From Candidatus Poriferisodalis sp. (lineage in GTDB: Bacteria > Actinomycetota > Acidimicrobiia > Acidimicrobiales > Poriferisodalaceae), in assembly GCF_965262965.1 (NCBI RefSeq), contig NZ_OZ253573.1, positions 954,817 through 1,018,816 on the forward strand: a DNA stretch of 64,000 bases, read 5' to 3'. Shown here in pieces: positions 5,225 through 53,281 of the stretch. Numbering within the stretch: position 1 is the stretch's first letter; each line of letters opens with the position of its first letter. The notes beneath the pieces were generated by a model. It saw only the letters and a program-made list of their open reading frames with translations. It was not told the origin of the DNA and searched no databases. The position numbers and the translations under genes were made by a program.

Positions 5225-6058
5225 CTAGAAGATCTTGCCGACGAGGTCGGCGCGTTCGACGGCACCCATGAGATCGTTCCAGCCGTCATCGGTGGCCCGC
5301 ACCCACTTGGTGAGGTGCTCCATGCGCATCATCTCGGCGATCTCGGGTTCGTCGGGGTCCATCGCCACGAGCAGCTCCACGAATTGCTCGCAGGTGTCGT
5401 CGCTCAGGCCGGGGGCGGAGGTGAAGGCGCAGTGGCAGTAGGGACGGGTGCGCCACACCTCGACGATGTCCTCGTCGGCCAGCTCGTGGCGTCGCTTCAA
5501 GTACCCAAGCCACGGCTCGAAGATCACCCCGGCATCGGCTCGACCGTCCATGACGGCGCCGAAGATCGTCCGGTCGTCCACCCATGACGCCAGGTTGGAG
5601 TACTCCGTTGCTTCCAGCTCGACGAGCTCGCAGTCCGATTCGACATCAAACCCGTCCTCCGCGAGCTGAGCGGCCGGCAGCAGGTACAGCTCGCTGGAGA
5701 TGTCCACTCCCAGGGCCAGCCGCCGCCCCCGTAAGTCATCAAGACCGGCGATGGCAGCGTCGGCCCTGGCGACGATGAGCGAGTGGACGTCCTCGTCGGT
5801 GTCGCGCATCGCCAGCGTCCGGCACGTGCCCGGGGACCGCAGCAGCAGCTGGGCATGTGCCATCGGCGCGTTCCACGCGATGTCGACATGGCCATCGAGC
5901 ACCGCTGTGCACAACGCGTCGTAAGTGGAATACAGCGCGTACTCCGTCTCGAGGCCGGCTTCGTTGAAGTACTTGCGGATGGCGTTCCAGATGAAGACGG
6001 CTCGCTTCGGATCGGCTGCCGTGGAGCCGATCATGAGCGGTCGTGGGCGTGCGGTCAT
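5225..6058 (-). CDS. PhnD/SsuA-type substrate-binding-domain protein (no obvious signal peptide)
   Basis: 277 aa. The pattern YDALCTAVLDGHVDIAWNAPMAH resembles phosphonate-type periplasmic binding proteins. Confidence 0.5.
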   Translation of the reverse strand: MTARPRPLMIGSTAADPKRAVFIWNAIRKYFNEAGLETEYALYSTYDALCTAVLDGHVDIAWNAPMAHAQLLLRSPGTCRTLAMRDTDEDVHSLIVARADAAIAGLDDLRGRRLALGVDISSELYLLPAAQLAEDGFDVESDCELVELEATEYSNLASWVDDRTIFGAVMDGRADAGVIFEPWLGYLKRRHELADEDIVEVWRTRPYCHCAFTSAPGLSDDTCEQFVELLVAMDPDEPEIAEMMRMEHLTKWVRATDDGWNDLMGAVERADLVGKIF

Positions 6059-6106
6059 GGGCTTGTCCCCCGCCGCCCAACGTAGTGCCGCACTCGGGCG
6101 GTGGCT

Positions 6107-6328
<222 letters not shown>

Positions 6329-6418
6329 CTATCGCACGACTACTGGATAGAACATCGAGTGCGGGAAAAGAAAGCCAGCGCGCGCACTCTTCGAGGTGCG
6401 AAAGAGGGCGAACTCCAT
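6329..6418 (-). pseudogene. Possible C-terminal remnant of the parE toxin disrupted by IS30
   Basis: Immediately outside the left IS30 repeat. Reads MEFALFRTSKSARAGFLFPHSMFYPVVVR*. GF-FP--FY resembles the ParE core strand. Weak. Confidence 0.3.
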
Positions 6419-7459
6419 CGGTGGTTGCAAGTGAACGGTCATGATGGCCGTTGCCGACACATGCAGCCGACCGATGGAGGTGTCGAGTATGGCAGCGAGG
6501 CTGAGTTTGGATGAGCGGGTGTTCATCGAGTCGTCGCTGGGGGCGGGCCGCAGCGTCGCGGACGCAGCGGCCCGGCTGGGCCGTGATCGGTCCACGGTGC
6601 ATCGCGAGCTGGCCCGCTGCGGCGGGCGGGCGGGCTATGACGCCCGCGCTGGGGACGCGTGGGCGTGCGCGAGGGCGCGACGAGAGCGAACGCCCAAGCT
6701 GGCGCGCGACCCGGTGCTGGCCGCTGCGGTCGATGAGCGTCTGAGGCTGAGGTGGTCCCCGCACGCAGCGGCGGCGGACCTGCGCGAGGCGGGCATGAGC
6801 GTGTGCGCGGAGACGATCTATCGGGCGTGCTACGCGAACGACGCGCGCAGCGGCCTGCCCGCCGGCTCCTGGGCGAAGCTGCCGCGGCGCTGCCGGCGCC
6901 GTCGGCCGCGCAGCGTCGCGCAGGCCCAAAAGCCCAGCCCGCTGGGGCAATACCGGCCGATAGCCGACCGGCCCGCCGACGTCGAGGACCGTACAGAGCC
7001 CGGCCACTGGGACCGCGACCTCATCGTCGGCAAAGCGAACCTCACCGCCGCGGTCACCCTCGCCGAGCGCACCAGCCGCTACGCGGTCACCGCAGCGCTG
7101 CCCGACGGCTACAGCGCGCCCCAGGTCGCCGCCGCGGTCACCGCGGCGCTGGGCCGCCAGCCCGCAGCGCTCGTGCGCACCCTCACCTGGGACCAAGGCC
7201 GCGAGACGGCCCGCCGGGCCGACATCGAAGCAGCGCTCGGCATCGAGGTGTTCTTCTGCGAGCCGCGCTCGCCGTGGCAGCGACCCACCAACGAGCACAC
7301 CAACGCACTGCTGCGCCGATGGCTCCCCAAAGGCACCAGCCTCGACATCGCACAACTGCGGCTCTCGGTCATCGACGACAAACTCAACCACATGCCCCGC
7401 CGACTCCACCACTGGGCATCAGCACACGACATCTACACTCAACTCACTTGCAACCACCG
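6419..7459 (+). mobile_element. IS30-family insertion sequence
   Basis: 16-bp perfect terminal inverted repeats CGGTGGTTGCAAGTGA (6419-6434) and TCACTTGCAACCACCG (7444-7459) bracket the transposase ORF. Imperfect matches extend about 10 bp further out, so the true ends may be slightly wider. Confidence 0.75.
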
Positions 7460-7463
7460 CTAG
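6441..7463 (+). CDS. IS30-family transposase
   Basis: 340 aa with an N-terminal HTH (RSTVHRELAR) and a DDE region GHWDRDLIVGK...TWDQGRE...NEHTNALLRRWLPKG. The stop codon lies just outside the right repeat. Confidence 0.9.
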   Translation: MMAVADTCSRPMEVSSMAARLSLDERVFIESSLGAGRSVADAAARLGRDRSTVHRELARCGGRAGYDARAGDAWACARARRERTPKLARDPVLAAAVDERLRLRWSPHAAAADLREAGMSVCAETIYRACYANDARSGLPAGSWAKLPRRCRRRRPRSVAQAQKPSPLGQYRPIADRPADVEDRTEPGHWDRDLIVGKANLTAAVTLAERTSRYAVTAALPDGYSAPQVAAAVTAALGRQPAALVRTLTWDQGRETARRADIEAALGIEVFFCEPRSPWQRPTNEHTNALLRRWLPKGTSLDIAQLRLSVIDDKLNHMPRRLHHWASAHDIYTQLTCNHR

Positions 7464-7569
7464 AGCTTGCCAACCGACGGCCGAGTTCATCACCACCCTC
7501 GGACCGGTAGTACTCGCTCCGCTCAACCAAGTCCGCCTCGGCCAGCGGGCGCAGTCGGACTTCGCTCAC
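7460..7569 (-). pseudogene. 5' fragment of parE toxin truncated by IS30
   Basis: GTG at 7569-7567 overlaps the parD stop (GTGA). Reads VSEVRLRPLAEADLVERSEYYRSEGGDELGRRLASS, a typical ParE N-terminus, then runs into the IS30 right repeat. Confidence 0.6.
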
Positions 7570-7867: not shown

Positions 7868-10545
<2,678 letters not shown>

Positions 10546-25879: not shown

Positions 25880-26626
25880 ATGCTCTTGATCCTGTGGGCC
25901 ACACCCCGCTCGATCTCGACGGCGTTCGAGTGGATGATGCGCCAGCGAGGCGACTTCGAGTGCTTCCACGAGCCCTGGAACGAGCTCTACTACTACGGCG
26001 AGGACCGCCGGTCCCAGCGCGACGGCCACGTCCCCGCACGACCGGGCCACCACTATGCATCGTTCTGGGACGAGATCTCAGTGCTCGCCCAGGCACAGAA
26101 CATGTTCGTGAAGGACTTCGCCTATTCGGTCGAGCACCACCTCGACGACGCCAAGCTCTCGGCGATGACCCACACGTTCCTGATCCGGGACCCGAAGCGA
26201 GTGGTCCAGGGGCTGGGCCATCACTGGCCCGACTGCACGTGGGACGAGGTCGGGTTCGGGCCGCTGCACCGCCTGTTCGCACAGATCGCCGACCGCGACG
26301 GCACTCCCCCGCCCGTCATCGACGCTTCCGACCTCATCGGCGACCCCGAAGGAACGATCCGGGCCTATTGCGACGCGGTCGGCATCCGGTTCGTCGCCGA
26401 GGCGCTCGAGTGGTCCCAGGGCGAACGCACCGAAGTGAGCTGGTACGGCGAGGGTTCCGGCCCTTGGCACGATGCGCTGCGCCAGAGCTCCGGCTTTCAC
26501 AAACCCCCCACGGAATATCCGCCCTTGGAGGACACTCCTCGCCTCCAGGGGCTCTACGAGCGAAGCCTGCCCCTCTACGCAGACATGCTCGCCCACAAAC
26601 TCGGTCCCGCCGCGCTGCTGGGTTGA
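25880..26626 (+). CDS. Sulfotransferase-family protein
   Basis: 248 aa. 5'-PSB-like loop ILWATPRSISTAF and 3'-PB-like FLIRDPKRVV. Sits next to PAPS synthesis genes. Confidence 0.65.
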   Translation: MLLILWATPRSISTAFEWMMRQRGDFECFHEPWNELYYYGEDRRSQRDGHVPARPGHHYASFWDEISVLAQAQNMFVKDFAYSVEHHLDDAKLSAMTHTFLIRDPKRVVQGLGHHWPDCTWDEVGFGPLHRLFAQIADRDGTPPPVIDASDLIGDPEGTIRAYCDAVGIRFVAEALEWSQGERTEVSWYGEGSGPWHDALRQSSGFHKPPTEYPPLEDTPRLQGLYERSLPLYADMLAHKLGPAALLG

Positions 26627-26737
26627 CTTGCCCGGTCTTGTGGTCCTGCCGGTGAGGAGGCAACCGTGTTGACGATGGAACGGCAGCGAGCTGGGCAGGA
26701 GTTGCTGTCGGGCCGCTCGCGTCTGTAAAGGTGCGCC

Positions 26738-27916
26738 ATGCGACGGTTCGCCATCGGTCTCCTTGCGGCGTTTCGAAGGGTCTCGCTGTTCGTCTTGAGA
26801 GTGCGCGGCAAGACGCACGACGATGTGGCCGCCCAGCGCGTCGTCAGCGGCCAATCCTGGAACGAATTCTGCGACTCGTTGAAAGCGGCGGGTGCTGCGC
26901 TGAATTTCCCCGGCACGCCGCAGGACTCGTTCAGCCAAGCCGAGGGGTATCGCTACCTCAGCCGTCTCGCTCGTGCCGGCCTGAATGCGTTCGTTGAGCA
27001 CGCCGACCCCAACGCACCTGTGCTGCATCGCGTCGTCGACGAGACCACCAAGCTGGGGGCGGACAATCCCGACAACTTCTATCTGACGGCTGCGTTGGAC
27101 GGGAGCTACGAGTACAAGATCACCGGTCGGCGCAACGACATCGTCTATCTGAGCTTCGGAACACAATCCGGCAACTACGGCCAGGGCGGCGGCCTGCCCC
27201 CCACGGGGTACATCGAATCCGACGAGATCAAGATGGACCCCGACGGGGGCTTCGAGCTGGTGCTCAGCAGCACTCCCCAGGTCAGCAACTGGCTCCCGAT
27301 GACGCCCGAGACCGGCACGCTGGTGGTCCGCCAGACGTTCGGGGACCGCACCACGGAGACCCCTGCAGAGCTGAGCATTGAGCGCATCAACTGTCCTCCC
27401 GACGAGCGGCGCCCTTCCCACCTGACGGCACGGGCGCTCGATGAGGGGTTGAAGAAGGCAGGGGCGCTGGTGATGGGCGCACCATTGCTGTTCGCCAAGT
27501 GGGCGCGCGACTTCTCCAAGCACAGCAACGAGCTGCCGATGTTCGATCCGGACGTGTCGCTGGCCGCCGACGGGGACCCGAACATCACCTACTACCACAG
27601 CCACTGGGCACTGGCGCCCGACGAGGCTCTGCTCATCGAGGCCACGCCTCCCGAATGCGAGCACTGGAACTTCCAGCTGAACAACTACTGGATGGAATCG
27701 CTGGACTATCGCCACTTCACGATCCACACCAACAAGCATCACGCCCACTACGAAGCCGACGGTTCTGTGCGCTTGATCGTGGCGCACGAAGATCCCGGCC
27801 TGCCGAACTGGCTCGACACCGCAGGCCACACGTCGGGCACGATGTGCTTTCGGTGGGTGCGCGCCGCCGAGCACCCCCAACCGGGGTGCCGAGTGGTCAA
27901 GCTGAGCAGCTTGTGA
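26738..27916 (+). CDS. Conserved hypothetical protein, DUF1214-like
   Basis: 392 aa. AEGYRYLSRL...HWNFQLNNYWMESLDY...DPGLPNWLDTAGHTSGTMCFRW. An alternative GTG start lies at 26801. Confidence 0.5.
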   Translation: MRRFAIGLLAAFRRVSLFVLRVRGKTHDDVAAQRVVSGQSWNEFCDSLKAAGAALNFPGTPQDSFSQAEGYRYLSRLARAGLNAFVEHADPNAPVLHRVVDETTKLGADNPDNFYLTAALDGSYEYKITGRRNDIVYLSFGTQSGNYGQGGGLPPTGYIESDEIKMDPDGGFELVLSSTPQVSNWLPMTPETGTLVVRQTFGDRTTETPAELSIERINCPPDERRPSHLTARALDEGLKKAGALVMGAPLLFAKWARDFSKHSNELPMFDPDVSLAADGDPNITYYHSHWALAPDEALLIEATPPECEHWNFQLNNYWMESLDYRHFTIHTNKHHAHYEADGSVRLIVAHEDPGLPNWLDTAGHTSGTMCFRWVRAAEHPQPGCRVVKLSSL

Positions 27917-27958
27917 AGCTAGCCCAGTGACAGAACGCTCCTGCAGCCGGAAGGTGTC

Positions 27959-30265
27959 GTGACTTCCACGGACTATGAGAACCCCTATCGCCCTGTACCC
28001 ATCAGGATCTTCAACCGGCTCGGCCGGGCAGGTCTGCATATCGGGCTCTCGGACCGCCTGGACGTCGGTGCATTGCGTGAGGCTGCGCAACGCAAGACCG
28101 GCCTGACGGACTTCGGCGACGACGGGCATTTGCGTGCTCTCAACGTGCTCGTCGCCTCGATCAACAGCGAAGCCCGCCTGACCCCGACCGGCCGGCAGAT
28201 ACAGCAGTCGCGGCTCGTCGCCGCGCTGGTTCACCGGCTGCGTATCGAGGATCTGCTCAAGCGGCACCCCGAGATCGACGACATCGGCCTCGGCACAATC
28301 ATCCTCGTCACGGGCTTGCAGCGCACCGGCACCACGTTGCTGCAGCGCCTCCTGAACTCCCATCCGGAGGTGCGGGGCATCTCGGGCGCGGAAGCGCTGG
28401 TGCCGGTGTCGACAGCCGACGGGACCGAACGCGCGCAGCGAACTCGCCAATGGCGTGCCGTGCTTGCCCAGAAGACGATCTCCTACCTGGCACCTGAGTT
28501 CATGGCGATCCATCCGATCGGCCACGACCAGGCCGAAGAAGACGTCCTGCTGCTCGATCTGAACTTCATGAGCCAGTCAGCCGAAGCCATCATGCATGTG
28601 CCGAGTTATTCCCGCTGGCTGGAAGAACAGGACCACACGCAGACCTACCATTACTTCCGCCGAGTCCTGAAAGTGCTGTCGTGGCAGCGCCCCGGGCGCG
28701 CCTGGGTGCTCAAGACTCCGCACCACATGGAGTACCTCGACGTGTTCGGGAAGGTGTTCGATGGCGCGACCATCGTGCAGACCCACCGCGACCCCCGAGT
28801 GACGCTCGCATCGTTTTGCAGCATGGTTGCCCACGGCCGCGGCATCTTCAGCGACTTGGTCGATCCGGCCGAAATCGGGCAGCACTGGTGCTACAAGACG
28901 CACAGGATGGTTGACGTGGCCATGCAGACCCGGGCCGAGTCGCCGGCCGGTCGATTTGTCGATGTTTCCTATTACGACCTGACGAACGACCCGATCGCCG
29001 AGGTGAGGCGGATCTGCGGTCTGGCGGGGATCGGCTTCGATGCCGAAGCTGAGCGAGAAGCCGGGCAGTACATGGCGGCAAACCCGCAGAACCAATTCGG
29101 CAAGCATGAATACAAGCTCAGCGATTTCGGACTGAGCGAGCAGATCGTCGACGAAGCCTTTTCCTCCTACCGGGAGGCCTATGCAATCCCGTTCGAAGAG
29201 GCCCCGAGCCAGCCATCGAGCGCTCATGATCAACCCACCGGCGAGGCACCTTCTGGCATGACACGAGAGAAGCAAACGTTCCCTGGCAGCGCCATCGTCA
29301 ACGCCATGAGCGCGGCCCTCCGGGACCTCCGAGATTCGAAGAACCCCGACCTCAGCCCTGTCCCAGATGACGTGCGGATCGACGGCAAGACGTGCCTCGT
29401 GACCGGCGCCAACAGCGGAGTGGGTCGAGCTGCGGCGGTTGATCTCGCACGGCGCGGCGGGAACATGATCCTGGCCTGCCGCCCCGGTCATGTCGGCATC
29501 TGCGACGAGATCAAGCGACAGTCCGGGTCCGAGACCGTGGAATTGATCGAGGTGGACCTCGCCGATCTCCGTTCCGTGCATCGCTGCTGCGACCAGCTGC
29601 ACGAGCGCGGCATCCGCATCGACATTGCGCTCATGAATGCCGGCCTCTTGTCGCGCAGATCGAGGCAGACCCCGCAGGGATACGAAGTCATGTTCGCGGT
29701 CAATTTCCTAGCCAAACGGGTGATGATCGACCGATGGCTGACCGACGGCGTCATTCGCCCGTCGAGCCACCCCAGCGAGACTCCGCGGATCGTGTTCGTC
29801 GCATCGGAATCTCACCGGTCCTGCGACCCCATCGATTTCGATCGCTTCGGTGCCTACACCGAACACGCGATGACCGAGAGCATGCAGAGATACGGCCAAA
29901 GCAAGCTGACTCTCTGCACGTTCACAACCGAGCTGTCCCGACGCCTGAATCAGGGCGAGAGCATCGATGTCGCAGTGCACGCGTTGTGCCCGGGAGGCGT
30001 GGCCACCAATATCGCCAGGGAATCGCCGACACTGCTGAAGCCGATCATCAGCCCGGTGCTGCGATTGTTCTTTCAGTCTCCCGAAAAGGCCATCGGACCG
30101 GTCGTGTACCTGTGCTGCGCCGAAGAAGCGGGCAGCTCCACTGGGATGTACCTGCACATGATGCATCGCAAGCAGGTGTCGCCCCCGGCGTCGGACCCGG
30201 AAAATGGGACCAAGCTGTGGGAGGCCAGCGAGGCATTGGTGGCGGAATCGAGCGAATTCAGATGA
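27959..30265 (+). CDS. Fusion protein: N-terminal sulfotransferase domain plus C-terminal SDR domain
   Basis: 768 aa. Sulfotransferase motifs [16 protein letters not shown] and [14 protein letters not shown]; SDR motifs [13 protein letters not shown]...YGQSK. The stop overlaps the cysD ATG (ATGA). Confidence 0.75.
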
Positions 30266-31185
30266 GCGCCTCAGTGCCGGTCGAGCTGCGGCTGACCCAT
30301 CTCCAGCAGCTGGAGTCCGAGGCGATCCACATCATGCGCGAGGTGGTCGCCCAGTGTGAGCGGCCGATGATGCTGTATGCGATCGGCGAGGACTCATCCG
30401 TCCTGCTGCACCTCGCCCGCAAGGCCTTCTACCCAGGGAGGATCCCGTTCCCGCTCTTGCACGTCGACACGACGTGGAAGTTCTCCGAGATGATCTCGTT
30501 TCGGGAGCGGATGGCTGACGAGATCGGCTTCGAGCTGATCGTCCACACCAACGCCGAGGGTGTGGCCCAAGGGATCAACCCGTTCGACCACGGTTCGAAG
30601 AACTACACCGACATCATGAAGACCCAGGCGCTCCGCCAGGCGCTGGACGCGGGCGGGTTTGACGCGGCGTTCGGGGGTGCTCGGCGTGACGAGGAGAAGT
30701 CACGGGCGAAGGAGCGGGTGTTCAGCTTCCGCGATTCGCATCATCGCTGGGATCCGAAGAATCAACGTCCCGAGCTATGGCACCTCTATAACGGGCGGGT
30801 CAAGGCGGGCGAATCGATCCGGGTGTTCCCGCTGAGCAACTGGACCGAACTCGACGTGTGGCAGTACATCGGTCTCGAGGACATCCCCATTGTTCCCCTC
30901 TATTTCTCGGCGATGCGGCCGGTGGTGGAGCGTGACGGCGTGCTGATCATGGTGGATGACGACCGGTTCGTCTTCGACCAAGGCGAGGTGGCGGAGCTGC
31001 GCTCGGTGCGGTTCCGCACACTTGGCTGCTACCCGCTGTCGGGTGCGATCGAATCGACGGCAACGACGCTGCCCGAGATCATTCAGGAGATGCTGCTCGC
31101 CACCCGCTCTGAGCGCGAAGGCCGGGTGATCGACTACGACCAGTCAGGCTCCATGGAAGAGAAAAAGCGCGAGGGGTACTTCTGA
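30262..31185 (+). CDS. cysD: Sulfate adenylyltransferase subunit 2
   Basis: 307 aa, nearly colinear with remembered E. coli CysD (..[56 protein letters not shown]). Confidence 0.95.
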
Positions 31186-33131
31186 TGGCCCCTGCATCCG
31201 GTCTGGCTGCCTCTGGATTCGTCGAGTCTGACTTTGACGCCTACCTGGCCTCCCATCAACAAAAGGACCTGCTGCGCCTGTTGACCTGCGGCAGCGTGGA
31301 CGACGGCAAGTCGACGCTGATCGGCCGGCTGCTGCACGACTCCCAGCTCATCTACGAGGACGTGCTGGCCAGCCTTGAGGCCGACTCTGCGACGCAGGGT
31401 TCGGCGGGCAGCCGGGTCGACCTGGCGCTGCTTATGGACGGTCTGCGGGCCGAGCGGGAGCAGGGCATCACAATCGACGTCGCCTACCGCTGCTTCTCCA
31501 GGGCCCGGCGCACATTCATCATCGCCGACACCCCGGGCCACGAGCAGTACACCCGCAACATGGCGACGGGCGCGTCGACCTGTCAGCTGGCGGTGATCCT
31601 GGTCGACGCCCGCCACGGGGTGCTGCCCCAGACCAAGCGCCACAGCTACATCGCCAGCCTGCTGGGCATCCGCCATGTGGTGGTGGCGGTCAACAAGATG
31701 GATCTCGTGGACTGGTCGGCGGACCGCTTCGCTGCGATCTGTGAGGACTTTCGAGCGTTCTCCAAGACGCTCGAGTTCGGCGAGCCGTACTTCTTGCCGA
31801 CCTCCGCCCTGCTGGGCGACAACGTGGTCGACGGGGGCGACAACCTCGACTGGTTCGACGGACCACCGCTCTTGGAGCACCTCGAAACCGTGGACGTCGA
31901 CGCCGGTGTCGATCTCGAGCACTTCCGTATGCCGGTGCAGATGGTCAGCCGGCCGAATCCGGACTTCCGCGGGTTCTGCGGCACTGTTGCTTCCGGGGCC
32001 ATTCGGCCCGGCGATGAGGTCGCGGCCCTGCCATCAGGGCTCGGCTCGACGGTGGAACGGCTTGTGACCTTCGACGGCGACCTCGACGTTGCCGGGCCGG
32101 GTCGAGCGGTCACCGTCACCCTCGCCGATGAGATCGACATCAGCCGCGGTGACATGTTGGTGAGACGTGGCGATGAGCCGCTGCGTGCCCACGAGCTCGA
32201 CGCGATGGTGGTGTGGATGGCCGAGGCCAAGATGGAGCCCGGCAGCTCGTATCTGCTCCAGTCCACCAGCGGCATCTCAAACTGCACGATCCGCAGCCTG
32301 CGCCACCGCGTCGACATCGACACGCTCGGAAACGAGCAAGCGCTGGCACTGGGACTCAACGACATCGGACGCTGCGTGGTCGCGTCGAACCGGGAGTTGC
32401 TGTTCGACCCCTACAGCAGCAATCGCACGACAGGGTCGTTCGTGCTGGTCGATCGGCTCTCGAACGCCACTGTGGCCGCTGGCATGTTCATCGGCGCGGC
32501 GTCGGCGTGGGACCACTCGCCAGACGCGGCGCTCGTACGGCAGATCTCGGAGATCAGCGACGCCGAGCGGGCCATCCGGTTCGGCCAGCAGCCCTGCACC
32601 ATCCTGCTCACGGGACTCACCGCTGCGGGCAAGTCCACCCTCGCCACCGCGCTTGAGCGTGAGCTGTTCGACCGGGGCAAGGTGTCGATCCGTCTCGACG
32701 GCGAGAACGTTCGCATGGGCATCTCCCGGGATCTGGGCTTCAGCGCCCAGGAACGATCGGAGAACCTGCGCCGTGTGTCGGAAGTCGCTCGGCTGGTGAA
32801 CGGACAGGGGCTGATCGCGATTGCCGCCCTGGTGGCGCCCAACGGCGAGGTCCGCCAGCGTGCCCGTGACCTGGTGGGCGCCGACCGCTACGTGGAGGTA
32901 TTCGTCGACACACCGATCGAGGTGTGCCGCGACCGTGACCCCCACGGCCTGTACGCCATGGCCGACAACGGAGAGATCCCCCGGTTCCCCGGCGTTTCGG
33001 CCGGCTACGACCGGCCAGCGGACGCCGACCTGCGTGTCGACACGTCCGCCCAAGGCGTGGACGAGTGCGTGGCGGCGATCGTGCGGGTGCTGACCGAGCG
33101 CGGCTTCCTCCGAGGACCGAGCACGCCATGA
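31185..33131 (+). CDS. cysNC: Bifunctional sulfate adenylyltransferase subunit 1 (GTPase) fused to an APS-kinase-like domain
   Basis: 648 aa. GTPase motifs GSVDDGKST, DTPGHEQY and NKMD. C-terminal kinase-like domain GLTAAGKST...LDGENVR...RDPHGLY. The ATG overlaps the cysD stop (TGATG). Confidence 0.9.
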   Translation: MAPASGLAASGFVESDFDAYLASHQQKDLLRLLTCGSVDDGKSTLIGRLLHDSQLIYEDVLASLEADSATQGSAGSRVDLALLMDGLRAEREQGITIDVAYRCFSRARRTFIIADTPGHEQYTRNMATGASTCQLAVILVDARHGVLPQTKRHSYIASLLGIRHVVVAVNKMDLVDWSADRFAAICEDFRAFSKTLEFGEPYFLPTSALLGDNVVDGGDNLDWFDGPPLLEHLETVDVDAGVDLEHFRMPVQMVSRPNPDFRGFCGTVASGAIRPGDEVAALPSGLGSTVERLVTFDGDLDVAGPGRAVTVTLADEIDISRGDMLVRRGDEPLRAHELDAMVVWMAEAKMEPGSSYLLQSTSGISNCTIRSLRHRVDIDTLGNEQALALGLNDIGRCVVASNRELLFDPYSSNRTTGSFVLVDRLSNATVAAGMFIGAASAWDHSPDAALVRQISEISDAERAIRFGQQPCTILLTGLTAAGKSTLATALERELFDRGKVSIRLDGENVRMGISRDLGFSAQERSENLRRVSEVARLVNGQGLIAIAALVAPNGEVRQRARDLVGADRYVEVFVDTPIEVCRDRDPHGLYAMADNGEIPRFPGVSAGYDRPADADLRVDTSAQGVDECVAAIVRVLTERGFLRGPSTP

Positions 33132-33156
33132 ATGAGGGCCCGGGGATGGGAACGCC

Positions 33157-33753
33157 GTGAACGAACCCGTCTCGCGCAACATCGTTCGGGCAGAGGGACG
33201 GGTCAGCGGAACGGACCGGGCGGCCCACTTCGGCCACCGCGCGGTGACGGTGTGGTTCACCGGGCTCTCGGGCAGCGGCAAGTCCACCCTTGCCTTCGCC
33301 CTCGAAGAAGCGCTGCTGGAGCGTGGCATCGCCGCCTACGTGCTCGACGGCGACAACGTCCGCTTCGGGCTCAACCGCGATCTCGGCTTCTCACCTGAGG
33401 ACCGCACCGAGAACATCCGCCGGATCGGCGAGGTGTGCCGCCTCTTCGGTGATGCGGGCATTGTCGTGCTGACGGCATTCATCTCGCCATATGCCACGGA
33501 CCGCGACCAAATGCGTGCAATCCACCCCGAAGGCACGTTCGTCGAGGTCTACGTCGACACGCCCCTCGATGTCTGCGAAGCCCGCGACCCCAAAGGCCTC
33601 TACGTGAAAGCCAGAGCCGGCGAGATCCCAGATTTCAGCGGCATCTCCGCCCCCTACGAGCCCCCGCCCTCGCCCGAGATCACCATCGACACGACCCAGC
33701 CCCTCGACGACTGCATCGCCCACCTCCTCGCCACGCTTGGCGCAGCGCTTTGA
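33157..33753 (+). CDS. cysC: Adenylyl-sulfate (APS) kinase, stand-alone
   Basis: 198 aa with canonical motifs [33 protein letters not shown] and RDPKGLY. Confidence 0.9.
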
Positions 33754-34953: not shown

Positions 34954-35706
34954 CTAGTCCCAGGTGCCGAATTGGAAAGCCTCGCTGGGCAGTGCTCGCC
35001 ACTGCTCCCATACCGTTGGGTCACCGTCGGTGACGTCGATCCCGGAGTGGGGTCGGCCCCACAATCCGAACAGCACTTGGACCGGCGGCCCTTCGATGAC
35101 CACAGCGGCTGGCGACGTTGACTGGGGCAGCGCCTCGACGTTGACAGTGCCGACCGCGTCGCCGGCATCGACGAGCCGCGCAGTTAGCCGACCAGGGTCT
35201 CGTTCGAGCACGCGACGCATCGCCTGCAGGAAGAACCGGCACGTGTAGTCGGCTGCGTCCAGCGCCTGGGTCGGCGTCATCGAGTGCTCGTGACCCAGGG
35301 CCATCTCGACATCGAGGCGGTGCATGCCCAGCTCTGATGCCGCGTGCCAGGCCCACAACCCTGCGGTGCCTTCCCCGCCGGTCATCGAGAAGTAGCAGCG
35401 CCGATCGAGATCGTCGGTGAGTTGGTTGATGGCCGAATGCGCCCACGTTGCGAGTTCCGCCGTCGAGGTACCAGCGGGCTTGAGGCCAGCACGCTCGTAC
35501 CCCCGTGCCCGGGACTCGGGATCCTCCGGCACCGAGGTGATCATCTCTTCCCAGGCGATCCCCACGCGGCCGATGTGCGACGCTGCGTTGTAGACCGTCC
35601 AGCCCGGGCAGTTCGGAACTAGCGCCGCCTGTTCTTCGTCGCCGCGGCCGCAGATGTAGTCGATGGCCGACCGCGCCGCCGCAACCCGCTCAGCATGATC
35701 CAGCAT
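34954..35706 (-). CDS. Mycothiol-dependent maleylpyruvate-isomerase-family (DinB-like) protein
   Basis: Start MLDHAERV at 35706 inside ORF 34954..35814. PGWTVYNAASHIG and the overall pattern match this actinobacterial family. Confidence 0.7.
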   Translation of the reverse strand: MLDHAERVAAARSAIDYICGRGDEEQAALVPNCPGWTVYNAASHIGRVGIAWEEMITSVPEDPESRARGYERAGLKPAGTSTAELATWAHSAINQLTDDLDRRCYFSMTGGEGTAGLWAWHAASELGMHRLDVEMALGHEHSMTPTQALDAADYTCRFFLQAMRRVLERDPGRLTARLVDAGDAVGTVNVEALPQSTSPAAVVIEGPPVQVLFGLWGRPHSGIDVTDGDPTVWEQWRALPSEAFQFGTWD

Positions 35707-35746
35707 TGTTGACCCCTCTCCGCTTCCGCTGGTGTTGGACGCATAG

Positions 35747-35929
35747 CTATTCCCAGTCGAGATCGATGTCGATGGATACCAACTCGATGGCACCGTCAGC
35801 CGCGAGCTGGCCAACCACGTTCAACGCCCGCACGAGTACGCCGCTGGTTATCAGAATCCGGTAGTCCTGACGATCGGGAATCAATTCCGGCAGGTCATCG
35901 AATTGCCCGGCGAACCTATCGACGATCAG
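35747..35929 (-). pseudogene. RelE/ParE-like toxin C-terminal segment with no start codon
   Basis: 60 codons (LIVDRFAGQFDDLPELIPDRQDYRILITSG...IELVSIDIDLDWE*) follow directly, in the same frame, after the TGA of the small ORF 35930..36109. Confidence 0.3.
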
Positions 35930-36109: not shown

Positions 36110-36252
36110 GAGCCCACGATACTCGGAACCGGTCACATCGTCGGGTAGCCGAATCGTTGGCGATCCGCAGTACGGTGGCCGACGTCGACTCGGTGGGCCG
36201 GTCATCTCGACAAGAAAGCTCGACCGCCCGCGCATCCCCTCAGGAGATGGAC

Positions 36253-37022
36253 ATGTACGACACAGATCTGCCGATCCGCAGCGACCTGCGGGAGGCTCAT
36301 GCGGCAGTTGTCGACCGTTGGACCCGCCCCGGCACCTGGTGGACCGCCCAAGAGCGCTTGGCAATCGTCGCCGAAGTCCGTCGAGCGCGTGATGCCGCAG
36401 AGATCCCCCGGCATGGGTTCGGGCATCACAGGTCAACGGTGCGATTCGCGAAGGGCATCCGCTGCCTGCCGCAGCCATTGACGTGATCTGGCGGCTGACC
36501 AACCACTCCGGGACGCTGACGGCCGAGTGGTGCGAGATGGTCATCGACGGCTTCGGTGAGGCCTCCGGTGCGATCACCCCTGGCCAGTACACAGAGCTCG
36601 TGGCGCTCGTCGCTCAGGCAAACTGCATCGACCGATTCGCCGAAGGTCTGTCCCTTGACCGTCCGGCGCCTGGAGAGCCAATCTCCGGCGAGCCGAACCG
36701 CACGGTGCCCGGCAACGCAGCCATGCGGGACCACTGGGTGCCGACCGTTCCAAGCGACTATCCGGCGGTCGTCCAAGCACTCAGCGGTGTGCCCGCCGAG
36801 AACGCTGCCATGCTCCTGCTGTCGGATGCCCAGTACCTCCCGGTCGACGAGATGTTTGACCTGACGAGCGACCGGAACGCACTCTCCCGCATGCAAGTCG
36901 AGTTGGTGGCCGCACGCACGTCGGTGCTGAACGAGTGCTTCTACTGAACGACCGGCCATTCGATGCTGCTCAGTCTGAGCGGCCGAAGCCAAGAGGCCCT
37001 CCGCTTGCTCGCACACAGTTGA
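36253..37022 (+). CDS. AhpD/CMD-domain alkylhydroperoxidase-like protein with in-frame TGA (CxxU, candidate Sec) and a 1-nt frameshift in a C5 run
   Basis: ORFs 36157..36486 and 36483..36947 join at CCCCC (36405-36409). C6 would give ...AAEIPPAWVRASQ.... TGA at 36945-36947 falls in NECFY-U-TTGH (family motif N-x-C-x-Y-C-x-x-x-H). The frame stays open for 24 more codons to TGA at 37020-37022. Confidence 0.55.
36965..36983 (+). promoter_or_regulatory. SECIS-like hairpin downstream of the AhpD-like UGA
   Basis: GCUGCUCA-GUC-UGAGCGGC: an 8-bp stem with one G-U pair and apical loop GUC, starting 17 nt after the UGA. Folded by hand. Confidence 0.35.
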
Positions 37023-39611: not shown

Positions 39612-39662
39612 CGCACTCGAATCCCGCTCGGTGGTGGTCGGCGACGTGGGTCGCCTAGACCG

Positions 39663-42561: not shown

Positions 42562-43978
42562 GGCTCTTCGCGTTTTAGGGTGGAGTGAGGGTGTCGAGGA
42601 GTGTCCAGTCGGGTTTGCCGGCGTAGAGGAGTGCTCGGATTCGGTAGTGCTCGAAGTTGGTGAGACCGGACGCGTTGCGTTTGATGAGCTTGGCGAGATT
42701 GTTCGCTGCCTCGGTGGGTCCGTTGGTGACGCGTGAGAGGTGCCAGTTGGCGATCTGGGTGCGCCAGCGTCCAAGGGTGCGGCCGAGCCTGTTCATCTCC
42801 GGGGACCAGGCGGGATCGCGCAGATCGAGGGCGAGCGCGTCGAGGGCTCGTCGGGCGAGGCGGTGGCTGGGGATCTGGTAGGTCTGGCGCAGGGTCTCTT
42901 TGGCGTGCCAGGCGTCTCGCAGCTCACCGCGGGGATCGCCGGCTGCGAGCAGGCCGCGCAGCTTCGCGTCGCTGTCTGTGCTGAGGCGTTCGTGGGCCAT
43001 GGTGAGCGGCTTGCGGACCCGGTACAGCGGGCCGTTTTTGGTGCCCCGCCCGCCGAGGGTGTCGTTCTGGACGCGGCGGCGCACCTCGTCGACCATCTGG
43101 TTGCCCAAGCGCACGACGTGGAACGGGTCCGCGACCTGGCGTGCGTGCGCCAGCGCGGTGTCGAACGCCTTGCGGTACGGACCTGACAGGTCCATCACCG
43201 CCCAGCGGACCGCCCGGCGCCACTGCGGCGTGCTTGCCTCCAGCCATTTGATCGCCGGATTGGCTGTGCGGCCTGCGACGATGTCGAGCAGGATCCCGCG
43301 GCGGGCGTCCACGATCGTGGTGCCCCACCGTTTGCGCCGGTACTTGCCGTGGCGCCACATCAAGATCTCGTCGAGCCCCAGCGCGGTGACGCCGTCGATG
43401 CGGCCGCGGTCCGCGGCGAGCAGCGCTGTTCCCCAGCGCCGCACTTCGCCCATCACGGTGTGCCAATTGCAGCCCAGCTCCGCGGCGATCTCTTTGACGG
43501 TGCGGCCCCGCCCCACCCGACGCGTCGCCCGGCGCGCTGCCCGCGACGTCAAACGCGCCCGCGGCGGCGCTATCTCTGGCGACTGCTCAGTAAACGTCCC
43601 CACCGCGCAGTCCCCATTCGGACAGCGCCAGCGGCGCTTTGCCAACACCAGCCGCACCGGCCGCCCGAACGACCCCAGGTCCACCAGCTCCGCACGCCTG
43701 ACGCCGCTCGACCACACAGACCCGCCGCAGGACCCGCACACCGGTCGCGGCGAACGAAGCCGCACCAGGACCCTCAACGGCCGGCCCGGCTCGTCGCCCA
43801 CCGACACCACTTCCACATCGGCGCCGAGTCCGACCAGCAGCTCATTGACACGCGTAGGGTCGCTCTCCACGGGGATCCTCCAGGACTCGGCGGCATAGAC
43901 ACCTCCGATTCTGGGGGATCCCCCGCGTTCACACCGGGACCCTCACACCACCAACTCCACCCTCAAACGCGAAGCGCC
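42562..43978 (-). mobile_element. ISL3-family insertion sequence without a recognisable target duplication
   Basis: Terminal repeats GGCTCTTCGCGTTTTAGGGTGG (42562-) and CCACCCTCAAACGCGAAGCGCC (-43978), about 19/22 matching. The flanking 8-mers differ (ACATTGGA and CCGTTTCC). Confidence 0.75.
42575..43870 (-). CDS. ISL3-family transposase
   Basis: 431 aa. Zinc-ribbon CGSCGG...CPNGDC, DEILMWRHGK..., DLSGPYRKA, NGPTEAANNLAKLIKR. Confidence 0.9.
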   Translation of the reverse strand: MESDPTRVNELLVGLGADVEVVSVGDEPGRPLRVLVRLRSPRPVCGSCGGSVWSSGVRRAELVDLGSFGRPVRLVLAKRRWRCPNGDCAVGTFTEQSPEIAPPRARLTSRAARRATRRVGRGRTVKEIAAELGCNWHTVMGEVRRWGTALLAADRGRIDGVTALGLDEILMWRHGKYRRKRWGTTIVDARRGILLDIVAGRTANPAIKWLEASTPQWRRAVRWAVMDLSGPYRKAFDTALAHARQVADPFHVVRLGNQMVDEVRRRVQNDTLGGRGTKNGPLYRVRKPLTMAHERLSTDSDAKLRGLLAAGDPRGELRDAWHAKETLRQTYQIPSHRLARRALDALALDLRDPAWSPEMNRLGRTLGRWRTQIANWHLSRVTNGPTEAANNLAKLIKRNASGLTNFEHYRIRALLYAGKPDWTLLDTLTPP

Positions 43979-45313: not shown

Positions 45314-46484
45314 GTGTCTTGTTTGGCTAGTTCGGCGCGTTATCATGGTGGGGCGGCAGCGTGGCTGCGGCAGGCGATGATCGGAGGCGGACATGGGTGC
45401 ACGGCGGGGACGGCCGACGGTCGCGATCGTGCTGGACGGCGAGGAACGCGAGACGCTCGAGCGGTGGGCGCGGCGGCCCAAGTCGTCCCAGGCGCTGGCG
45501 CTGCGGTGCCGCATCGTGCTGGGCGCGGCCGAGGGCCGCCCCAACAAGGAGATCGCTGCGGGGCTGGGGTGCCATCCCGCGACGGTGTCCAAGTGGCGCC
45601 GCCGGTTCGCCGAGCGCCGCCTCGACGGGCTCTGCGACGACCCGCGGCCGGGCCCGCCGCGCACCATCGACGACGCCGCCGTCGAGAGGGTGATCGTGCT
45701 CACCCTGGAGAGCACGCCGGCGGACGCGACGCACTGGTCGGTGCGGTCGATGGCCAAAGCGGCGGGCATCTCGCCGTCGTCGGTGCATGCCATCTGGCAG
45801 GCGTTCGGGCTCAAGCCCCACCTCGCCGAGGAGTCCGAGCTGTCCCCGGACCCGCAGTTCATCGACAAGGTCCGCGACGTGGCCGGGCTGTACCTGAACC
45901 CCCCCGAGGCCGCGGTGGTGCTGTGCGTGGACGAAAAGACCCAGATACAGGCACTGGACCGCACCGCCCCGATCCTGCCGCTGATGCCCGGCACACCCCA
46001 GAGGCGCACCCACGACTACCGCCGCCACGGCACCACCGACCTGTTCGCGGCCCTCGACACCGCCTCGGGCAAGGTCATCACCTCGATGACGCCGCGGCAC
46101 CGCGCCGAGGAGTTCCGCAAGTTCTTGAACCTCATCGACAAAGAGATCCCGCAGCACCTCGACGTGCACATCGTGCTCGACAACGTCTCCACCCACAAAA
46201 CGCCCTCCATCAAGCGCTGGCTGCTGCGCCACCCCCGCTTCAAGCTCCACTTCACCCCCACCTACAGCTCCTGGATGAACCTCGTCGAGCGCTGGTTCTC
46301 CGAGCTGACCACCAAATGGCTCCGCCGCGGCACCCACACCAGCGTCACAGACCTCAAAGACTCCATCAACGCCTGGGTCGACAACTGGAACAACGACCCC
46401 AAACCCTTCATATGGCGCAAGACCGCCGACGAGATACTCGACAGCCTCGCCACATATATCCAACGAATTCCCCAAACAGGACAC
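45314..46484 (+). mobile_element. IS630-family insertion sequence flanked by TA
   Basis: Ends GTGTCTTGTTTGGCTAGTTC... and ...GAATTCCCCAAACAGGACAC (about 19/23 inverted match). TA on both sides (45312-45313 and 46485-46486). Confidence 0.75.
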
Positions 46485-46487
46485 TAG
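45393..46487 (+). CDS. IS630-family transposase
   Basis: 364 aa. HTH region, CVDEKTQIQALDR, IVLDNVSTHKT, TPTYSSWMNLVERWF. Confidence 0.9.
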   Translation: MGARRGRPTVAIVLDGEERETLERWARRPKSSQALALRCRIVLGAAEGRPNKEIAAGLGCHPATVSKWRRRFAERRLDGLCDDPRPGPPRTIDDAAVERVIVLTLESTPADATHWSVRSMAKAAGISPSSVHAIWQAFGLKPHLAEESELSPDPQFIDKVRDVAGLYLNPPEAAVVLCVDEKTQIQALDRTAPILPLMPGTPQRRTHDYRRHGTTDLFAALDTASGKVITSMTPRHRAEEFRKFLNLIDKEIPQHLDVHIVLDNVSTHKTPSIKRWLLRHPRFKLHFTPTYSSWMNLVERWFSELTTKWLRRGTHTSVTDLKDSINAWVDNWNNDPKPFIWRKTADEILDSLATYIQRIPQTGH

Positions 46488-48230
46488 GAGGGTGGTCGGC
46501 AATTGGGGTGTGGTGTGTGTTGTTTGTTGTGCGTGCGCGGTTGTCTGGTTGGTGGTTCGGGGTGGGTTGGGCGCGGGTGTTCTGCGTGATGATGCCCAGG
46601 CACATCGTCGGTCGGCCAGTGGGGCCCGGGGTCGCTGGTCGGGGCGGGTGTTCTGCCTGATGATGCCGAGGCGGCCGGCGCGGTCGAGGTTGAGGGCGGC
46701 GATGCGCAGGTCGAGCCACAGGTTGGCTTTGTCGAGGCCGCGCCAGGGGACGTTTTTGGTGCGGGACTTGATCTGGGCGATCTTGCGTTCGGCCTGGGAT
46801 CGCAGTCGGTATCTGGCGAGGAATTCGGGTTCGTGGCGTTGTGCTCTCGCGGGGGCGAGGAGTTCTTCATATGGGTTGATCTCGATGATGCGGCCGCCGT
46901 CGCGTGTGGTGCATCGCGCCTTGAGCTCGCATTGGGAGCAGTCCGTTGCCGCGAACCGCACCTGGCGCCGTTTGGCGCCGCGCGGCGGGATGGGTGCGGT
47001 GTTTGCCTGCGGGCAGGTGACCGTCGCTGCTTCGAGGTCGATGTCGAAGTCGGCTTTGGTGAGCATGCCTTCGCGGGCCGGGATCGGCGCGGCGGGCGCG
47101 ACGAGGTCGATGCCTCGGTCGGCCATCGCTCGGCGGGTGGGCCCGGATCCGTAGTGGGTGTCGGCGATGATCTCCGCGACCGGGACCGGGTCGGCGTCGA
47201 TGAGGTCACCGATCACAGCGGCGTCGTGGACGGTCGCGAGCGTCGCGGTCGCTGAGCAGATCAGGTCCGAGTCCACATCCGCGGACACGTGCAGCTTGTA
47301 GCCGTCGTAGCGGTCGGTGCGCGAACGGTGCCCGTGCCGGGCGTCGGGATCGACTGTGGAGACGACCCGGCCCGGGGCCACCCTTTGAGCTATCCGTGCT
47401 GTTTCGGCTCCGTCGTCGGCGGCGGCGATCTCGATGTCCTGGCCCGCCACGACCCTCAACAGCTCGACCGCTGCTGCCAGGCCGGGATCGTCGAAACGGG
47501 CGCAGAACCCGATGACGGTCTCGGCGTCGCCGAACAGCTCCGCGACCAAAGCAGCCCGCGCCCGGGGGTCTGCCCACATGACCTGCGGCTTGCCTTGCCG
47601 CCCGTAGTCGTCGCGCGACAACAGCCCGGCCAGCACCGCTGCGGCCCCGGCATCGGCGTCGAGCGCTGCCAGCGCCCCGAGGCACTTGCGGACCCCGGAC
47701 CTGATCAGCGTGATCGTGTCCTGGGTCAGCACGCAGTCCGCCACACCGGTCGAGTCCATCGTGCGGCGATGGCCGATCACCCCAGCGCGCTTGGCCGCGA
47801 TCTTGACACGATCCCCCAAAAACGACTCCATCCCGGCGCGCACCAGACGCGCCCGGAACTCCACCAGCACCACATGCGCGATCCCGCGATGCTCCAACGG
47901 CAGACCCAGCGCCGCTTTCCACGACATGTCGAACCGCGACCGCCGCTCAGCCTCACGGTCCGACACCCCATAGAACAACCCCAACAACAACAACGCCGCC
48001 ACCACCGACGGCGGATGCGACCGCCGACCACGGCCCGACGCATACAACGCATCAAAATCGGCATCACAGAACAACTCGCCCCGAGCCTGCCCCAACGTCG
48101 CCAAAAAACCCTCAGAGTCGAGCAGGCCGCCCACCATCACCCCGACATCGAAAATCGAACCCTGACCATCAGCCGAACCGCGCACCCCACCATCATCCGC
48201 GATCACGCCCCCCAACACCAGGACCCACAC
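46488..48230 (-). CDS. IS5/IS1182-type DDE transposase; no stop codon inside the element
   Basis: Upper part of ORF 45327..48230. InsH-like N-terminus (SHPPSVVAALLLLGLFYGVSDREAE), VDPDARHGHRS..YDGYKLHV and IIADTHYG. The frame runs out of the element into antisense IS630. Start uncertain (GTG 48230 or ATG 48137). Confidence 0.7.
46573..46667. repeat. Two 24-bp direct repeats GCGGGTGTTCTGC(G/C)TGATGATGCC, 71 bp apart, near the IS left end
   Basis: Read directly at 46573-46596 and 46644-46667, 23/24 identical. Confidence 0.8.
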
Positions 48231-48475: not shown

Positions 48476-49648
48476 ATGAACGTGAGCGAAGAAACCCCCA
48501 GTGAGCTTCTGACCGCTTCGGAGGCCGCTCTTGAGTGGATCAACGCAACGCAGGAGTCGCACTACGAGATCACCGGAGTCATCGACGCCGTAGACACCGT
48601 GGCACGAGCACGAGAAGGGTCCTTCGAACTGGGCTTGGTGCTGTGCGACGGCGACGTCTGTGCCCGTGAGCAGGTAGTGGTCGAACGATCGGCCGAGGGC
48701 CTTCGAGTGTCGGCCGCCGACGTTGGCGATCCGCTGATCCCGCCGCTGCTCGACCCGCCGATCGGGGTACGCACCGGGTGGCTAAACGCCCAACTCGACA
48801 AGCACAAGTTTGTCGTCCTGGTGTTCTACCGCGGCTTGTGGTGACCTCCATGCCGCCGCGAGTTGCGCGGCTTTGGAAAGTCGGGAGTCGTCGAGGAGAT
48901 CCGGGCTGCGGGCGGCGGGATCTTCGCCGTCTCCAGTGAACCCCAGAGTCTCGCGAGCGAAGCACAGGACACATGGGAATTGGAATATCAAGCGGTAGGC
49001 GACCCGCACCACGAGATCCTCGGAGACTGCCGCGAGACTGACCGATTCGACCTCTACATCGGCGACACAGCAGTATTGGAGCGACACTGGTCCTCGCACC
49101 CGAACGGCATCTTCCAAGCCGGGATTCTGGCCCTCACCGAGGACCATCGAGTGCTGTACCGGTGGCACTGTCGCCCAACTCATCAGAATCGTGGTGGCGC
49201 CTCCGGTCGAGTCACCGCGTCGCATGTGTGGTCTCGCATCCGAGACGGACTAGCCAGCGACACCGACGCCGCATGGGATACCGATCCCCCACTCGACGCC
49301 CCAGAGGCCTTCTGGCCGTACTTCGTCGCTCAGCTGTTTGCCCATGGATGGTTCATCAAGCCGAAGCGGTTCCCACTCGGCCGATCCGACGACAAGCCGA
49401 CTGCGCGCGTGTCCGCGATGAAACCACGACTCATTGGATTCGCCGCGGCGTGGGCCATCTGCTTCGTGCTCCTGCCAGCTCGCCGAGTCCTCCTCGCTCT
49501 GGCCGGCTACGCCGTGGCTATCACACCGGCCGTCCGCCGAGTGAATCGCGAGTTCTCGCACATTCCCGCCGGCAGCACGCCCGAGCCAGGCGGGCGAAGC
49601 CTCGGCACCGAGCCCCCGAAGCCCCACCCTCGACAGCCGAGTCGCTGA
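48476..49648 (+). CDS. Peroxiredoxin-like (AhpC/TSA-redoxin fold) membrane-anchored protein with in-frame TGA in a UxxC motif (candidate selenoprotein)
   Basis: ORFs 48476..48844 and 48863..49648 share a frame. The junction reads KFVVLVFYRGLW-U-PPCRRELRGFGK...IFAVSSEPQ...AVGDPHHEI, with TGA at 48842-48844 where WCPxC is expected. The C-terminus has hydrophobic segments. Confidence 0.65.
48855..48871 (+). promoter_or_regulatory. SECIS-like 17-nt hairpin downstream of the peroxiredoxin-like UGA
   Basis: GCCGCG-AGUUG-CGCGGC: a 6-bp GC stem with a GU-containing loop, separated from the UGA by 10 nt. Folded by hand. Confidence 0.4.
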
Positions 49649-52575: not shown

Positions 52576-52699
52576 CGTACATATCTCAACAAACGCTCTG
52601 CAGGAGGCCGTAGCTTTCCAAAATCCGGCGTGATGCACTCAGGCCGACGACAACACCAGGGCAGTTCAGCAGGCCTCGAACTCACCTAGAGTTCTCGGC

Positions 52700-53002
52700 A
52701 TGGACGTGTCACTGCCGCCTCAGGCTGTCGAGGTCGAAGCGCGGCAGCCGTTCAAGCTGTGGATCAGATTTGACGATGGTGTGAGCGGCATTGTGGACCT
52801 CGCCCAGTGGTCGACCCGAGGAAACTTCGCTACCTGGTCGGATGTGGCCTTCTTCAAGACAGCGCATCTGCGGCCAGACGGCGCTATCGCATGGGGAAAG
52901 GACGACAACCTCGAACTCGATCCCTCTGCGATGTATTCGGATCTCACCGGCAAGTGCTTCGAAGACCTGCACCCGAAACCGTGGCCCCAGCTGGCTGGCT
53001 GA
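52700..53002 (+). CDS. DUF2442-domain protein
   Basis: 100 aa. KLWIRFDDGVSGIVDL...DGAIAWGKDDNLELDP. Confidence 0.7.
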   Translation: MDVSLPPQAVEVEARQPFKLWIRFDDGVSGIVDLAQWSTRGNFATWSDVAFFKTAHLRPDGAIAWGKDDNLELDPSAMYSDLTGKCFEDLHPKPWPQLAG

Positions 53003-53020
53003 GATCAACGCAATTCCGTC

Positions 53021-53281
53021 ATGGCCGAACTCAGCCGCTTCTACGGGATCGTCATTCGCATGTACGGCAACGATCACGCTCCGCCACACTTTCATGCCGT
53101 CTACGCGGATCGATCAGCGCTCGTGGAAATAGCGACTCTTCGGATGATTCGTGGGAATCTGCCGCGTCGCGCGCGAAGCCTCGTTGCTGAATGGGCCAAG
53201 ATCCACCAGACCGAGCTTGCCGAGTCGTGGCAGCAACTCAACCGAGGCGAGACCCCACCAAAGATCGATCCGCTGGACTAA
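53021..53281 (+). CDS. DUF4160-domain protein
   Basis: 86 aa. FYGIVIRMYGNDHAPPHFHAVYAD. Confidence 0.8.
   Translation: MAELSRFYGIVIRMYGNDHAPPHFHAVYADRSALVEIATLRMIRGNLPRRARSLVAEWAKIHQTELAESWQQLNRGETPPKIDPLD

Follow-up and report, generated by a model that had tools for sequence, protein, structure and literature searches.

AhpD-like selenoproteins with a CxxU motif have been published since 2005, when 27 sequences were reported from the Sargasso Sea; in the GOS data the type 'AhpD-like 1' (COG2128, CxxU) comprised 299 sequences (PMC1088965, PMC2398784). NCBIfam curates such proteins as the equivalog NF041238, 'AhpD_rel_CFYUT, alkylhydroperoxidase-related (seleno)protein', a model of 357 positions. 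The solved proteins of the wider AhpD/CMD group (PDB 6k40, 2pfx and 2oyo) carry Cys instead of Sec and are ~180-200 residues long, whereas the selenoprotein family adds an N-terminal region of ~190 residues.

In bacterial SECIS elements of the E. coli fdhF type, a hairpin follows soon after the UGA and has a small apical loop, GGUC(U) or GUC.

We analysed a gene at 36253-37022 in a 64,000-nt stretch of the genome of Candidatus Poriferisodalis sp. (the whole stretch is called the window). No literature was found under the name Poriferisodalis. The gene is a copy of the already catalogued AhpD-like selenoprotein family and is not new; its kind is known because the family is curated as NF041238 and the AhpD-like CxxU class is published. 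A sequence-only reading of the window had recognized an AhpD/CMD-type gene with CxxU and had called AhpD-like CxxU selenoproteins an established class. The first statement is borne out by the NF041238 match and by the CFYUT motif in the model's name, and the second by the publications since 2005 and the curated model.

The window gene resembles NF041238 in having CFYUT with a UGA at the U and an N-terminal region of ~230 residues, but differs from it by a deletion of 104 codons and by a frame broken at codon 52. With the AhpD-like CxxU proteins of marine metagenomes (Zhang, Gladyshev and co-workers, 2005, 2008) it has in common the CxxU, the AhpD/CMD-type domain, a bacterial SECIS hairpin 3' of the UGA and an origin among marine microbes. 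Motif and domain are what suggest its equivalence with the published AhpD-like subfamily 1 or 2, of which it would be a truncated copy. It shares the signature N-x-C-x-Y-C-x-x-x-H and the all-helical domain with the solved AhpD/CMD proteins, with Sec for the second Cys, but unlike them it is without the second half of the domain. In our view, a known selenoprotein gene is probably present here as a redundant copy that is decaying stepwise toward a pseudogene.

Gene layout and family assignment

Read from the window, all sequence statements of the earlier reading hold at their coordinates. Frame 1 from the start codon (ATG, 36253-36255) encodes MYDTDLPIRSDLREAHAAVVDRWTRPGTWWTAQERLAIVAEVRRARDAAEIP, that is MYDTDLPIR...DAAEIP, and then runs off frame to a TGA at 36484-36486. 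Residues 1-52 are those of the intact orthologue P0001. Frame 0 continues with PPAWVRASQ...RTSVLNECFY, the TGA at 36945-36947, TTGHSMLLSLSGRSQEALRLLAHS and a TGA at 37020-37022. The parts of the gene are as follows.

36242-36246, plus strand: Shine-Dalgarno-like AGGAG, 6 nt 5' of the ATG (same in L001)
36253-36409, plus strand: N-terminal coding segment, codons 1-52, frame 1, through the C run (translation)
36405-36409, plus strand: C5 homopolymer, site of the 1-nt deletion that shifts the frame; C6 in L001, L088 and L089 (alignments)
36410-36944, plus strand: rest of the coding region before the UGA, to codon 231, frame 0, ending in ...TSVLNECFY (translation)
36930-36959, plus strand: redox motif N-E-C-F-Y-U-T-T-G-H (CxxU and conserved His)
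36945-36947, plus strand: in-frame UGA, the probable selenocysteine codon of the family (TGA in 89 of 89 instances)
36948-37022, plus strand: residual 24-codon tail after the UGA and native stop TGA (37020-37022)
36965-36983, plus strand: SECIS-like hairpin of 8 bp with loop GUC; the lower stem extends to about 36954-36990
36988-36999, plus strand: junction of a deletion within a 12-nt imperfect microhomology, GCCAAGAGGCCC (alignment)

The TGA at 36945-36947 lies within NECFY-U-TTGH, as had been read. Adding one C to the C5 run joins frames 1 and 0 in translation, as also claimed, and three sister contigs have C6 at this site. The proposal that one extra C repairs the gene is right for the frame; the product is not a full-length family member, since 312 nt (104 codons) are gone further downstream. 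A GTG-started piece of 154 aa from the window is deposited as 'hypothetical protein [Candidatus Poriferisodalis sp.]' (P0013, WP_428120522.1), and this record sits on a contig of 4,095,755 bp.

For searches, the frame was repaired and U was written as C. In a profile HMM comparison the repaired product matched NF041238 with 225 bits (curated cutoff: 175; E=1.6e-66) at positions 1-255 of 357 only, which is not the full-length architecture. The CFYUT motif with its U from an in-frame UGA is present in the window gene (NECFY-TGA-TTGH); an uninterrupted reading frame is not (C5 vs C6 in L001, L088 and L089). The read-through product of the syntenic orthologue L082 covers NF041238 positions 1-356 at 344 bits. 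The Pfam CMD domain (PF02627) scored 24.7 bits (gathering score: 23), covering profile positions 11-60 of 84 only, and the AhpD core domain TIGR00778 remained slightly under its cutoff (27.2 vs 27.8). A protein search with the repaired product retrieved 467 relatives, nearly all of 227-237 residues and covering 90% of the query, and names of the type 'AhpD_rel_CFYUT' are carried by the close orthologues too. Since 127 of 129 retrieved homologues end in CFY, gene callers evidently stop at the UGA of the family.

In the alignment with PDB 6k40, LNECFY[U]TTGH of the query faces LNRCVYCAVSH, so that the UGA takes the place of the second Cys of CxxC. This coincidence of the CxxC column with the UGA had been named as a check, and the aligned signature also agrees with the earlier claim that the second Cys of N-x-C-x-Y-C-x-x-x-H is replaced. 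The read-through product of L082 aligns without a break to this AhpD chain over residues 191-324, with the His four residues past the UGA. The Cys-x-x-Sec pair is presumed to be the catalytic centre of the intact members, and the family would perform peroxidase or thiol-reductase chemistry.

Probable selenocysteine codon and downstream hairpin

The scan, with one genome per species, gave 208 relatives, and the best 80 loci of these 208 were examined; they belonged mostly to Acidimicrobiales and Candidatus Poriferisodalis, with a few from Myxococcota. The codon after NECFY was TGA in all instances (89/89, window and loci together), and neither TAA, TAG nor a sense codon was found there. In the relatives (best 80 of 208) the frame after the UGA is open for ~113-138 residues and conserved, reading TTSHALLLGLSG...GDGGVxHGxLL...AVSANFHMMTRIADGTGTPLD. 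Between L082 and L086, dN/dS was 0.21 for this tail and 0.18 for the N-terminal part. Judged by such ratios, the tail of the relatives is under purifying selection. Constrained in-frame coding after the UGA is thus a property of the relatives; the window keeps 24 codons only. These 24 codons up to the TGA at 37020-37022 had been read at the right coordinates, but they do not stand as a normal C-terminus of the family, given the ~113-138 codons of the relatives.

The hairpin, GCUGCUCA-GUC-UGAGCGGC, begins 17 nt 3' of the UGA. For the 50 nt counted from the UGA, the folding energy is -18.8 kcal/mol (z=-2.7 vs dinucleotide shuffles). Among the relatives, all 75 distinct sequences 3' of the UGA keep the hairpin, and the paired cells amount to 98.8%; when the 3' partners were slid by 1-3 columns, pairing fell to 31-45%. 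Covariation occurs at two of the eight pairs, namely the outermost pair 21-39 (GC 51, UA 8, GU 6, CG 2, UG 2) and pair 24-36 (GC, GU and one AU). Part of this conservation reflects the encoded peptide LLLGLSG, but the third-position covariation goes beyond coding. Most members have the apical loop GGUCU; in the clade of the window an A-U pair closes the loop, leaving GUC or GUU. Compared by sequence alone, the window hairpin is like the E. coli fdhF-type SECIS in its position after the UGA and in its GGUC(U)/GUC loop. No SECIS or other relevant RNA family was matched in Rfam, either in the region at a permissive E-value or in the whole window at the gathering score. The earlier description of an 8-bp hairpin with a GUC loop 17 nt past the UGA is confirmed, and the hairpin can now be called conserved, SECIS-like and covarying.

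Insertion of selenocysteine at the UGA is well supported for the family by comparative evidence, because the codon is TGA only, the tail is constrained, the domain extends across the UGA and the hairpin covaries. The reading of the UGA as an ordinary stop between two genes, one for a 231-aa protein and the other for a separate protein of ~120 aa, agrees with the gene callers and with most database entries, in which the protein ends at CFY and the tail is a 119-123-aa ORF from the Met of HSMLL. We regard this reading as very improbable. The UGA coincides with the second Cys in the CxxC of AhpD, and the His that belongs to the motif follows four codons on, upstream of where the second gene would start; both parts are covered by one and the same AhpD domain alignment. 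An ordinary stop would also have to be TGA and never TAA or TAG in 89 instances, and to be followed at SECIS distance by a covarying hairpin with a GGUCU/GUC loop. Moreover, the NCBI curation treats the family as a selenoprotein, and the class has been described in print (PMC1088965, PMC2398784).

An in-frame deletion of 312 nt behind the hairpin

Alignments were made of the window with L082-84, syntenic orthologues of 88% protein identity, and with L086. The 3' neighbours of L082-84 match those of the window, namely the SnoaL-like, molybdopterin-oxidoreductase and luciferase-like genes. Compared with L082-84 and L086, the window is without 312 nt, equal to 104 codons and in frame. L082 reads ...SLSGQSQ[DAQVSF...VNDMASGQ]EALRLLTHR-stop, with the missing part in brackets, and the window reads ...SLSGRSQEALRLLAHS-stop. 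The tail segment after the deletion is SGRSQEALRLLAHS, and the last codons of the window gene (QEALRLLAHS, then the stop) match the native C-terminus GQEALRLLTHR of the full-length L082. This deletion was missed by the earlier reading.

The two BLAST segments obtained with L082, and likewise those obtained with L090, overlap on window positions 36988-36999. The 12-nt imperfect direct repeat at the junction points to a microhomology-mediated deletion. The deletion starts ~10 nt 3' of the hairpin and takes out NF041238 positions 256-356, the C-terminal ~45% of the AhpD-like domain. In the 197-residue AhpD chain 6k40 the lost part, which includes the AVSANFHMMTRIADG helix, corresponds to roughly positions 110-185.

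Each of the four contigs in the clade with ~98% identity carries the deletion: the window, L001 (named 16x), L088 (46x, on a 2.24-Mb contig) and L089 (14x). It is absent from the next relatives, L090 (90%), L082-84 (88%), L087 (87%) and L086, and the tails of L090, L082-84 and L087 have 123 codons. Its presence throughout the clade and its absence from the next relatives indicate that the deletion is real and fixed in a species-level lineage.

The C5 run, constraint and redundancy

The C5 run occurs in the window only; L001, L088 and L089 have C6 and an open frame. A comparison with orthologues had been named as a check on the one-base deletion, and it found the C run intact, at C6, in the three sister contigs; the reading of C5 as a one-base deletion is upheld. 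Each sister contig can be compared with the window over 6.4-11.8 kb (~98% identity), where C5/C6 is the sole difference in homopolymer length. Remaining gaps consist of one compensated pair within a cluster of substitutions and of larger insertions or deletions; a small cluster of non-homopolymer gaps near 35775-35858 appeared in the L088 comparison only. With a single homopolymer-length difference in the kilobases shared, homopolymer errors are not widespread in the assembly. The earlier reading had offered mis-sequencing or recent inactivation, and either may apply; we infer that the frameshift in the window genome is probably real. Since the deletion is shared and C5 is confined to the window, the copy was truncated in the lineage before the (apparent) frameshift arose.

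Between the window and L001 we counted six synonymous and three non-synonymous differences (omega 0.17). Among the four clade strains, the variable sites are six synonymous and six non-synonymous, small counts from four strains. In L089, the Tyr directly before the Sec codon is replaced by His (Y231H); this Tyr is invariant in 127 complete homologues.

An intact paralogue, P0034, whose UGA comes after 237 residues, is found on the same chromosome-size contig of 4,095,755 bp. The identical gene on L085, from which it was read, possesses TGA and hairpin as well as a tail of 141 residues, and matches NF041238 at positions 1-356 with 350 bits. With an intact paralogue on the same contig redundancy is available, and the window copy is most likely redundant and decaying.

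Tandem copies of the selenoprotein gene were also seen elsewhere. L021, a Poriferisodalis-type genome, has copies at 4673 and 5926. Further tandem copies were found in L038 (437-530) and L044 (2534-2630); the upstream copy in isolate 72822ac6 reaches a stop 31 codons past the UGA and looks like another decaying paralogue.

If C5 were an assembly or consensus error, the gene would yield an internally deleted protein of 256 residues, which might be expressed as a functional short variant of the selenoprotein. A homopolymer is the classic site of such errors, and all three sisters show C6 with the frame open. The deletion itself is in frame and retains the start, the CxxU, the SECIS hairpin and the native stop, and the dN/dS of 0.17 between window and L001 is near the 0.18 of the family and would fit ongoing constraint. 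On the other side, no further homopolymer error shows up in comparisons that extend over as much as 11.8 kb. The short form has lost the portion aligned with about residues 110-185 of 6k40 (NF041238 256-356), and among the best 80 of 208 relatives no other has the deleted architecture as its sole copy. The four strains together show as many non-synonymous as synonymous variable sites, including the loss of the Tyr beside the Sec. A consensus error in a gene for an expressed, functional short variant is therefore unlikely in our judgement. The more specific proposal, that the deletion created a shortened selenoprotein (N-terminal domain, CxxU, 24-residue tail and hairpin) that is still made and used, with C5 as a sequencing error, we hold to be more doubtful still. 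We infer instead a loss of function of the short form.

The C run might also be a site of programmed ribosomal frameshifting, with the gene expressed as written. A slippery-looking homopolymer is present, and nothing more speaks for this idea. The three sisters and all more distant orthologues encode EIPPAW in one frame, with C6 or an equivalent, so the family does not use frameshifting there. Because relatives read the site in a single frame, we rejected programmed frameshifting as hardly credible. Stepwise decay of a redundant copy is the reading that we retain.

Genomic neighbourhood

Several features of the surrounding DNA were recorded. Within a minus-strand ORF at 34954-35814, the window has 283 nt (35094-35376) that are absent from L001, L088 and L089. 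The MDMPI-like gene of the window has 286 aa with N and C domains; in the sister contigs a gene of 172 aa only is called. With these 283 nt absent in the sisters, the MDMPI-like neighbour is damaged where the selenoprotein frame is intact. Elsewhere, a strain-level indel sits between the molybdopterin oxidoreductase and the luciferase-like gene, with ~20 nt in the window (39632-39652) and about 500 nt in L001 (9338-9839).

The window also contains an ISL3 family transposase gene (42575-43870, minus strand) and a DDE_Tnp_1/DUF772 transposase gene (45327-48230, minus strand) with an unusually long ORF of 967 aa. An IS30-like element at 6407-7471 has an ORF with HTH_38 and rve domains (6441-7463) between inverted repeats (6407-6434 and 7444-7471). 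Together these elements mark a mobile-element-rich region. Next to the IS30-like element, at 6097-6328 (minus strand), lies a 166-nt duplicate of the katG 3' end, 84% identical; the whole katG gene occupies 7868-10261, also on the minus strand. A second copy of katG appears to have left the segment 6097-6328 as its remnant.

Upstream of the selenoprotein gene, a sulfation-related cluster extends over 25880-33753 (plus strand). It includes two genes with sulfotransferase domains, one of them fused to a short-chain dehydrogenase, as well as PAPS-reductase-like/CysD, CysN-CysC and a separate APS kinase.

Probable selenocysteine decoding and a second candidate gene

ARAGORN found no tRNA-Sec in the 64-kb window and 27 loci, and no SelA, SelB or SelD genes were found in the window and the short loci. 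Indirectly, the intact paralogue and a second gene with an in-frame TGA point to selenocysteine decoding in the window genome.

A crude gene call based on GC3 flagged adjoining pairs of ORFs in the same frame in the window as places where further in-frame TGAs or frameshifts might occur, and three pairs were translated. Two were rejected as selenocysteine genes: pair 5225-6328 is the katG 3' remnant beside a separate gene, and pair 52634-53281 is two small genes. Only 48476-49648 stood as a candidate.

This second candidate selenoprotein gene is on the plus strand, with its ATG at 48476, its end at 49648 and a TGA at 48842-48844. It reads ...VLVFYRGLW-U-PPCRRELRGF..., that is KFVVLVFYRGLW-U-PPCRRELRGF, a UxxC motif. 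The predicted product joins a Prx-like/AhpC-TSA domain to a hydrophobic region at the C-terminus, and the Pfam AhpC/TSA match (38 bits) crosses the TGA. GC3 values are high before as well as after the TGA. Four of four metagenomic orthologues, with 89-93% identity, retain the TGA. In the three that are complete, the 268-codon frame also continues to the stop, and the fourth, matched to query residue 379, is open as far as read. A hairpin, GCCGC-C-GC/GAGUU/GC-GCGGC, begins 10 nt 3' of the UGA. A PDB sequence search with this candidate gave no match at E<=0.01.

Proposed history of the locus and its meaning

We propose the following course of events. In intact members, the UGA after NECFY would be recoded as selenocysteine with the aid of the hairpin 17 nt downstream, and translation would run on for ~113-138 residues, completing an AhpD-like all-helical redox domain. 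In the lineage of the window, a 312-nt deletion between short imperfect direct repeats has cut out 104 codons just past the hairpin. Later damage appears to have been independent by strain: Y231H in one (L089), and in the window genome alone a change from C6 to C5, which would have added the frameshift after codon 52. The host is a sponge symbiont of the Acidimicrobiia, Candidatus Poriferisodalis sp., in which the intact paralogue makes this copy most likely redundant.

The value of these results lies mainly in annotation. WP_428120522.1 (154 aa) is a fragment of a frameshifted and internally deleted selenoprotein gene, for which a pseudogene flag is due, and nearly all database entries of the AhpD_rel_CFYUT family are truncated at the UGA. 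There is little discovery in the gene as such, as the family, its Sec codon and a SECIS-type hairpin are already curated (NF041238) and published. If the short form were nevertheless in use, a CxxU centre would be able to function when the second half of the AhpD fold is missing. Under the reading that we prefer, decay of a redundant copy, the locus would be a small, clean example of how a sponge symbiont loses a redundant selenoprotein paralogue step by step.
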